A model generated the notes under the pieces. That model did not search any database and was not told where the DNA came from. It worked only from the letters and a program-made list of their open reading frames with translations. Made by a program: the position numbers and the translations under genes. From a virus (Duplodnaviria; Heunggongvirae; Uroviricota; Caudoviricetes), in IMG/VR virus record IMGVR_UViG_2541047426_000009, positions 1-27,364 of that record: a stretch of 27,364 nucleotides of DNA; one strand, given 5' to 3'. Below, in pieces: positions 4,808-5,542 of the stretch (its first letter is position 1; each line of letters begins with the position of its first letter).

Positions 4808-5542
4808 ATGGAGACTGTTTTTGACGCACTGAAAGCGATGGGAAAAGCCACGTCGGTATAGCTGGCTGCGCGACTTGATATCAGTCGTGAAGAAGTACTG
4901 AACGAGCTGTGGGAACTGAAAAAGGCTGGCTTCGTTGATAAAAGCGTATACACCTGGCGTGTGGCTGATAACAACGTTCAGCAGGAACAGCCAGCGCCAG
5001 AAGAAACCACCACGGCAACAGAAGCGAAAATCTCAGAGTGCGATTTAACCGCGACGATTGAACAACGCGGACCACAAACGGCGGATGAACTGGCTACGCT
5101 GTTCGGTACAACATCCCGCAAAGTTGCTTCAACGCTGGCAATGGCAATCAGCAAAGGTCGTCTGATTCGCGTAAACCAGAACGGTAAAATTCGTTACTGC
5201 ATACCAGGTGATAATTTACCAGCAGAGCCGAAAGTTGAATCGGTAGCGGAAACCGATGGTAAAGCCTTTCCTCAGCCAGCCGGTGTTGCGTTACCGGTAC
5301 AGAAAGATGCAACACAGGAAGATATTAAAACAGAAACTGTGGCGGACATTGTGCAGTCGCTGCCATCGTTTACTGCAACGCGAGAAGATGATTTGATTTT
5401 GCCATCGCTGCATATGGCAAATCGCGAACTGCGTAGGGCGAAGAATCATGTCCAGAAGTGGGAGCGAGTCTGCGCCGCGCTGCGGGAGCTGAACAAGCAC
5501 CGGGATATGGTTGCCGGGATTTGTCGGAAGTCCGGGCAATGA
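4808..5542 (+). pseudogene. tandem winged-helix protein gene (resembles DUF1627-type prophage proteins) interrupted by an in-frame TAG at 4859-4861
   Basis: ATG 4808 with GGGAGG RBS; 17 codons, TAG, then in-frame ORF continues to 5542 with two wHTH-like repeats. Confidence 0.55.

Follow-up and report, generated by a model that had tools for sequence, protein, structure and literature searches.

The ydaW/DUF1627-family gene of a lambdoid prophage in Escherichia coli O157:H7 carries an in-frame TAG at codon 18, and our results indicate that it is very probably a nonsense null allele carried by the lineage, in other words a young pseudogene in a resident prophage. Judged from the alleles compared, the mutation is a G-to-T transversion that turns GAG into TAG (E18amber). 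The gene lies in a window of 27,364 nucleotides, by which we mean the whole stretch of DNA that was analysed.

Gene layout and public annotation

The window sequence contains a Shine-Dalgarno (SD) motif GGGAGG at positions 4796-4801, followed by ATG at 4808-4810. Translation of 4808-5545 from this start yields the peptide METVFDALKAMGKATSV (17 codons) and then TAG at 4859-4861 as codon 18, after which 226 in-frame sense codons follow up to TGA at 5540-5542. A first-pass annotation of this DNA had pointed out the strong ribosome-binding site, the start, the in-frame TAG and the open frame beyond it, and all of these are borne out by reading and translation. The program-made list of open reading frames gives only a 193-codon ORF from GTG 4961 for the locus. 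Pairing with the anti-SD sequence is by far the best at the native ATG 4808 (-10.3 kcal/mol, with later in-frame candidate starts at -5.0 or weaker), and intact homologues open with the same METVFDALKAMGKATSVE. Taken together, the shared N-terminus and the strongest pairing indicate that the 17 upstream codons are part of the gene and no chance ORF. The possibility had been raised that orthologues start further downstream and lack these codons; on checking, they do have them. The features of the locus are as follows:

4109..4774, + strand: replication gene (lambda P-type loader), the end of the replication module directly 5' of ydaW (ORF list; 'replication protein P' or 'phage replication protein' in TR01 and Sakai)
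4796..4801, + strand: GGGAGG, the Shine-Dalgarno site of ydaW (no candidate start pairs better with the anti-SD sequence; -10.3 kcal/mol)
4808..5542, + strand: ydaW/DUF1627-family gene of 244 codons plus stop, with the amber at codon 18 (PF07789; PHROG 630; CB9615 WP_000450692.1)
4808..4963, + strand: predicted first winged helix-turn-helix, residues 1-52, with the amber in its second helix, residues 16-23 (AlphaFold2 pLDDT of about 80; sub-threshold HTH hits; 8 synonymous and 0 non-synonymous differences to Rac-SA53)
4859..4861, + strand: premature TAG (E18amber), mutated base T4859, ancestral G (GAG in O55:H7 and O145:H28 PPompW; GAA in Rac-SA53 and K-12; E18 invariant in 65 homologues)
4862..4864, + strand: CTG, the PGAP start of the 226-aa WP_077744273.1, an annotation artefact (TR01 CDS coordinates and translation; anti-SD pairing of only -3.0 kcal/mol)
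4961..4963, + strand: GTG, the first canonical in-frame start past the stop, which opens the 193-aa ECs_5720 of Sakai (no SD upstream, -0.9 kcal/mol)
5033..5203, + strand: predicted second winged helix, residues 76-132, overlapping the N-terminal part of the DUF1627 match at 84-236 (AlphaFold2; Foldseek matches to FeoC, MarR, ArsR and ScpB; weak FeoC hits)
5375..5536, + strand: predicted long C-terminal alpha-helix, residues 190-243 (AlphaFold2 pLDDT of 75-89; many invariant residues between 201 and 233)
5539..5703, + strand: 54-codon ORF, its ATG overlapping the ydaW stop as ATGA at 5539 (sequence read; WP_001505071.1 in TR01 and CB9615)

Public gene models for this locus are in conflict. Intact alleles (CB9615, PPompW) are annotated as a 244-aa CDS, PGAP gives a 226-aa 'DUF1627 domain-containing protein' that begins at the CTG immediately 3' of the stop (WP_077744273.1), and the Sakai record gives a 193-aa hypothetical protein (ECs_5720) from GTG 4961. 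A pseudogene flag is present on none of the three gene models examined. The nonsense mutation is masked by automated annotation rather than flagged as a pseudogene.

The host element of ydaW is a lambdoid prophage adjoining ompW in E. coli O157:H7 (strain TR01), and the region is 100% identical in hundreds of O157:H7 chromosomes. The gene order in TR01 is int, xis, exonuclease, dicB, repressor, a cro-like gene, ydaT, an O-like gene, P, the DUF1627 gene, the 54-aa ORF, a fimbrial pseudogene, paa, hokD and then the late genes. The position of ydaW directly 3' of the phage replication genes is shared by TR01, Sakai Sp9, CB9615, PPompW, Rac-SA53 and K-12 Rac. In the Sakai record the ompW prophage is labelled 'prophage Sp9'; it was assigned to the defective prophages, yet still excises (PMC2669165). 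The EDL933 counterpart is the CP-933O/OI-57 element at ompW, which carries paa/adfO (PMC9144400). The late region of the window is like that of TR01 and strain 9000, and the window is not identical to Sakai.

Ancestral codon and distribution of the amber allele

The same prophage, carrying an unbroken 244-aa CDS (WP_000450692.1), occupies the ompW site of strain CB9615, which belongs to O55:H7, the ancestor-type serotype of O157:H7. Compared with this allele and that of the O145:H28 PPompW phages, the other 243 codons of ydaW are all identical, whereas codon 18 reads TAG against GAG. Over positions 1-9226 the window and CB9615 show 19 differences in all, one of which is T4859 versus G. Identity with the PPompW phages amounts to 99.9% over 901 bases, base 4859 being the sole difference in the aligned stretch around the gene start, and their GAG at codon 18 lies in an annotated 244-aa CDS (e.g. 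BCI48946.1 in LC567818). Codon 18 is GAA in Rac-SA53 and K-12, and Glu-18 is invariant in 65 aligned homologues. Over codons 1-53 the comparison with Rac-SA53 gives 8 synonymous and 0 non-synonymous differences, which indicates purifying selection on the N-terminal domain in intact copies of the gene.

The first-pass annotation had offered a recent nonsense mutation as one of three options and had taken the codon to be a likely CAG (Gln). Of this proposal the recent nonsense mutation stands, supported by the single-base difference at 4859 from O55:H7 and O145:H28, but the ancestral CAG does not: all intact alleles examined have GAG or GAA, both encoding Glu. A CAG ancestor with a C-to-T change is thereby ruled out.

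An exact search among 5,426 complete E. coli genomes was performed with a 71-mer centred on codon 18. The TAG version is found in 293 genomes, and the named serotypes among the matches listed are all O157; Sakai carries TAG at this codon as well. The GAG version is found in 311 genomes, including both O55:H7 genomes plus O26, O103, O111, O121 and O145 strains, and no O157:H7-labelled genome occurs among the 60 matches listed of these 311. By this distribution the mutation belongs to the O157:H7 branch and is younger than the O55:H7-like ancestor. It is likely that TAG is fixed in all O157:H7. In the genomes examined the orthologues thus have a sense codon and the stop is limited to one lineage, as in a nonsense pseudogene, and the remaining 226 codons are free of a second lesion in every O157 copy seen.

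The same numbers bear on the trivial explanation that TAG is a sequencing or assembly error in one record, for which a check of the base call had been advised. This reading is refuted for all practical purposes by the identical 71-mer in 293 independently sequenced complete genomes, which include Sakai and many long-read assemblies. G4859T tells the O157 genomes seen from the two O55:H7 genomes, which have the same prophage, in an early region that is otherwise almost unchanged (19 differences in 9.2 kb).

Prophage decay is visible elsewhere in the window, in the form of a fimbrial pseudogene and an IS629/IS1203 insertion, and strain TR01 has additional lesions outside the window. The fimbrial-protein pseudogene (about 5708-6241, + strand; a frameshift and an internal stop according to PGAP) lies between the 54-aa ORF and paa/adfO (6402-7160). 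CB9615 (O55:H7) is annotated with the same lesion, and the fimbrial pseudogene is therefore older than the ydaW amber. The IS629/IS1203 copy, a member of the IS3 family, occupies about 14300-15600 on the - strand (ORFs 15225-15551 and 14338-15228) and carries the frameshift pseudoknot (Rfam ALIL, 121.5 bits, 15154-15270). It splits a DUF1737/DUF6645 gene, the O55:H7 counterpart of which is annotated as a SASA-family carbohydrate esterase, and it is missing at the same spot in TR01 and O55:H7 CB9615. The ydaT-family gene at 2757-3308 is intact in the window and in O55:H7, whereas in TR01 a 1-bp deletion at window position 2843 (about 11737 in TR01) causes a frameshift. This frameshift is confined to TR01 in our comparison, which shows that decay of the early operon differs among O157:H7 strains.

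Several small RNAs were also observed. A hok/sok-type type I toxin-antitoxin module is present, with the sok antitoxin RNA at 7349-7498 (+ strand, Rfam 103.9 bits) beside a gene annotated as hokD or 'phage maintenance protein'. The sRNA STnc100 (12466-12674, + strand, Rfam 175 bits) is located just 3' of the prophage tRNA pair, and the anti-GcvB sRNA AgvB (12676-12735, - strand, 56.6 bits against a gathering threshold of 56) is convergent with STnc100 and abuts it.

Restart, suppression and readthrough

The GTG and CTG starts adopted in the Sakai and PGAP annotations correspond to an internal restart at GTG 4961 (193 aa) or CTG 4862 (226 aa), by which the DUF1627 part would be kept and the first winged helix lost wholly or partly, maybe leaving a functional protein. 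The frame is indeed open and unmutated for 226 codons, and the C-terminal part alone is modelled by PHROG 11856 and Pfam DUF1627. Moreover, GTG 4961 (codon 52) coincides with the beginning of the linker that is predicted to be disordered, which would leave the second winged helix and the C-terminal helix complete. Nonetheless, we consider such a restart improbable, given the scores that were obtained when every table-11 start codon in frame from 4862 to 5200 was evaluated for anti-SD pairing:

Native ATG 4808: -10.3 kcal/mol
CTG 4862: -3.0 kcal/mol
GTG 4961: -0.9 kcal/mol
Best other downstream in-frame start: -5.0 kcal/mol
Five other candidate gene starts in the window: -5.7 to -9.9 kcal/mol

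SD-like pairing is absent at both proposed starts, and the scan found no ribosome-binding site at any in-frame start between 4862 and 5200. E. coli initiates very poorly at CTG, and GTG 4961 lies 100 nt past the stop, a long way for termination-reinitiation. Because the N-terminal domain is nearly invariant in 65 of 65 homologues, a product that lacks it would not be the native protein. The undamaged state of the remaining 226 codons fits a young pseudogene, and a shorter product that is still in use would fit it as well; further decay is not expected anyway, since the 9.2-kb early region has only 19 differences from O55:H7. The restart at GTG 4961 that was initially suggested is, without a ribosome-binding site, not supported, although Sakai annotates that ORF.

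A second way to rescue the gene would be decoding of the amber, either by a suppressor tRNA or by programmed readthrough, which would make the full-length protein conditional or keep it at a tuned low level. In E. coli, termination at TAG is comparatively weak when a C follows, and some basal near-cognate readthrough is then expected. The base 3' of the ydaW TAG is a C, and the TAG allele is stably kept in 293 genomes. Even so, the tRNA content, the suppressor search and the homologues argue against decoding to such an extent that we regard it as very improbable.

Over the whole window ARAGORN predicts only a tRNA(cat) at 12124-12199 and a tRNA-Arg(tct) at 12280-12356, and no suppressor; with these as its only tRNAs, a phage-borne suppressor is ruled out for the window. 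The former is annotated as tRNA-Ile (ileZ type) in Sakai and TR01, and its partner is of the argO type. For the host we searched the genomes with a supE44-type glnV query (anticodon CTA), which is validated by its exact match to C600, DH5alpha and DH1; this search covered the supE type only. The query is exact in 155 genomes. The 60 matches listed of these are all K-12-type laboratory strains (C600, DH5alpha, DH1, J53 etc.) and include no O157, whereas TAG occurs in 293 O157 genomes. The other 5,269 matching records have glnV in the one-mismatch (wild-type) form only. Typical O157 carriers of TAG are therefore without supE. In addition, supE would put Gln at codon 18, where Glu is invariant, and thus would not restore the native residue. 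Expression in an amber-suppressing host of the supE type, one of the options offered by the first-pass annotation, consequently finds no support in either the window tRNAs or the glnV search.

Programmed recoding fares no better. The stop at codon 18 is seen in no other homologue examined; these have GAG or GAA, with E18 invariant, and the stop is therefore no conserved recoding signal. Among gathering-level Rfam hits none overlaps 4808-5542, and hence no Rfam cis-element lies over the amber site. A scan of 4000-6500 for consensus promoters and terminators gave background level. Reassignment of TAG in the phage was considered and rejected, since no other large phage gene of the window is interrupted under the standard code: translated with table 11, the terminase (641 aa) and further long ORFs among the head genes stay open, in agreement with the full-length CDSs annotated in TR01. 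Both programmed readthrough and reassignment are thus excluded as designs. A trace of truncated or readthrough product may be made, and nothing points to design.

Predicted product, consequences and known systems

For family searches and domain numbering we used the protein with codon 18 filled in. Pfam DUF1627 (PF07789) matches residues 84-236 with 308.8 bits (cut-off 28.1; E = 8e-93), covering profile positions 1-153 of 155. PHROG 630 (function unknown) matches residues 1-242 (E = 2.5e-121), by which the gene shows the family architecture of an N-terminal wHTH plus DUF1627 over its full length. At E <= 0.001 there are 2727 homologues, and the best 120 of these 2727 are mostly 240-257 aa long. 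The N-terminus is common to all 65 aligned homologues, with a nearly invariant N-terminal domain. Residues 4-46 give hits to HTH_20, TrmB and Crp-like families in Pfam and to ArsR/MntR types in NCBIfam, all below the cut-off, and residues 80-126 give a weak Pfam match to FeoC. A profile search of PDB sequences returned no significant relative (FeoC 7u37 at E = 0.45).

A structure was predicted with AlphaFold2 for the intact allele P0001, using 65 homologues. The whole chain is weak (mean pLDDT 64, pTM 0.27) and the individual domains alone are trustworthy:

Residues 1-52: winged helix 1 (helices 4-11, 16-23 and 27-40; strands 13-15 and 49-51), pLDDT of about 80
Residues 54-72: disordered linker, pLDDT below 50
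Residues 76-132: winged helix 2, pLDDT of about 80
Residues 136-189: disordered stretch, pLDDT below 50
Residues 190-243: single long helix, pLDDT 75-89

The wHTH topology is present twice in the model, as helix-strand-helix-helix-strand in residues 4-51 and as helix-helix-helix-strand-strand in residues 77-131. In a Foldseek search of the PDB the best match is ScpB, itself a tandem winged-helix protein (E = 4.9e-4), followed by MarR, ArsR, FeoC, AspA and Z-alpha winged helices, with probabilities of 0.98-1.00 to ScpB, MarR, ArsR, FeoC and Z-alpha domains. The model thus supports a product made of two winged helices and a long C-terminal helix, in agreement, at fold level, with the tandem winged-helix gene first suspected from the sequence. 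The C-terminal helix (190-243) may have a role in oligomerisation. A literature search on YdaW/DUF1627 found no DNA-binding experiment for the family.

In the model E18 is located in the second helix of the first winged-helix domain, and the course of events is very probably as follows. In a YdaW/DUF1627 gene of Rac-type lambdoid phages, located 3' of the replication genes in the ompW prophage, a single G-to-T transversion changed the GAG of the invariant Glu-18 to TAG after the split from an O55:H7-type ancestor, and the O157:H7 lineage now carries the mutation. Translation from the native ATG would stop once 17 residues have been made, within the second helix of winged helix 1, so that the 244-aa protein would effectively not be made and full-length YdaW would be lost. 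About 680 nt of message beyond the TAG would be left untranslated, and Rho-dependent polarity is possible downstream of the amber. The 54-codon ORF (5539-5703) is probably translationally coupled to ydaW and hence affected as well: coupling via the ATGA overlap would probably be lost and its expression reduced. The loss of ydaW is presumably neutral. Its biological weight is small, as it adds one more decayed gene to the well-known defective prophage pool of O157:H7. This is ordinary pseudogenisation, seen in sequences that were made public decades ago.

A different view of the loss follows from K-12. There the ydaW product is listed among the predicted transcription factors, with a winged helix of the MarR type (PMC9308461), and the over-expressed gene was a screen hit for blocking RcaT, the toxin of retron-Sen2 (bioRxiv 10.1101/2020.06.22.160242). 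The literature checked on ydaW/DUF1627 makes no mention of the amber codon and holds no tested function beyond this screen hit. In the K-12 Rac locus (positions 2484-3044) ydaW is wholly divergent from the family past about residue 145. By comparison of the alleles, the gene is inactivated independently in two resident prophages (K-12 Rac and O157:H7 ompW), which is the pattern to be expected of an accessory gene of the lytic cycle that a lysogen can do without. The independent inactivation and the retron-blocker hit leave some room for a non-neutral loss, selected during the emergence of O157:H7 (e.g. through interference with functions of the host or of co-resident prophages), or for an active DUF1627-only protein from codon 52. 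We consider this improbable and prefer the young pseudogene without such a role. For functional studies of YdaW/DUF1627 the allele of O55:H7, O145:H28 or Rac-SA53 should be used, not the O157:H7 or K-12 copies.

Comparison with known systems places the case as follows. ScpB (PDB 3w6j, 2z99) gives the best Foldseek matches (E = 4.9e-4 to 3e-3), which span both predicted winged helices. Identity is, however, 15-20% at an rmsd of 11-16 A and a TM-score of about 0.2-0.3, there is no sequence-level relationship, and ScpB is without an equivalent of the long C-terminal helix of YdaW; the two are alike in their type of fold alone, and YdaW does not belong with the ScpB proteins. Classical am mutants of lambda and T4, grown on supE or supF hosts, likewise have an early in-frame TAG that a suppressor host can read in principle. 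They are laboratory-selected conditional mutants, whereas for ydaW no suppressor was found in the window or in the supE search.

Among the closest known systems are the prophages of O55:H7 CB9615 and O145:H28 PPompW, which share the ompW site (CB9615) or the ompW name (PPompW) and the same gene order, but have GAG at codon 18 and encode the full 244-aa protein. YdaW of K-12 Rac (b1361) and the intact YdaW of Rac-SA53 belong to the same family, with the N-terminal METVFDALKAMGKATS and a position right after the replication genes. The two damaged copies differ in the nature of the lesion: in K-12 the C-terminus is replaced after about residue 145 and the protein ends at 186 aa beside the rzpR/rzoR remnant, whereas ydaW of the window is undamaged apart from the amber at codon 18, near the N-terminus.
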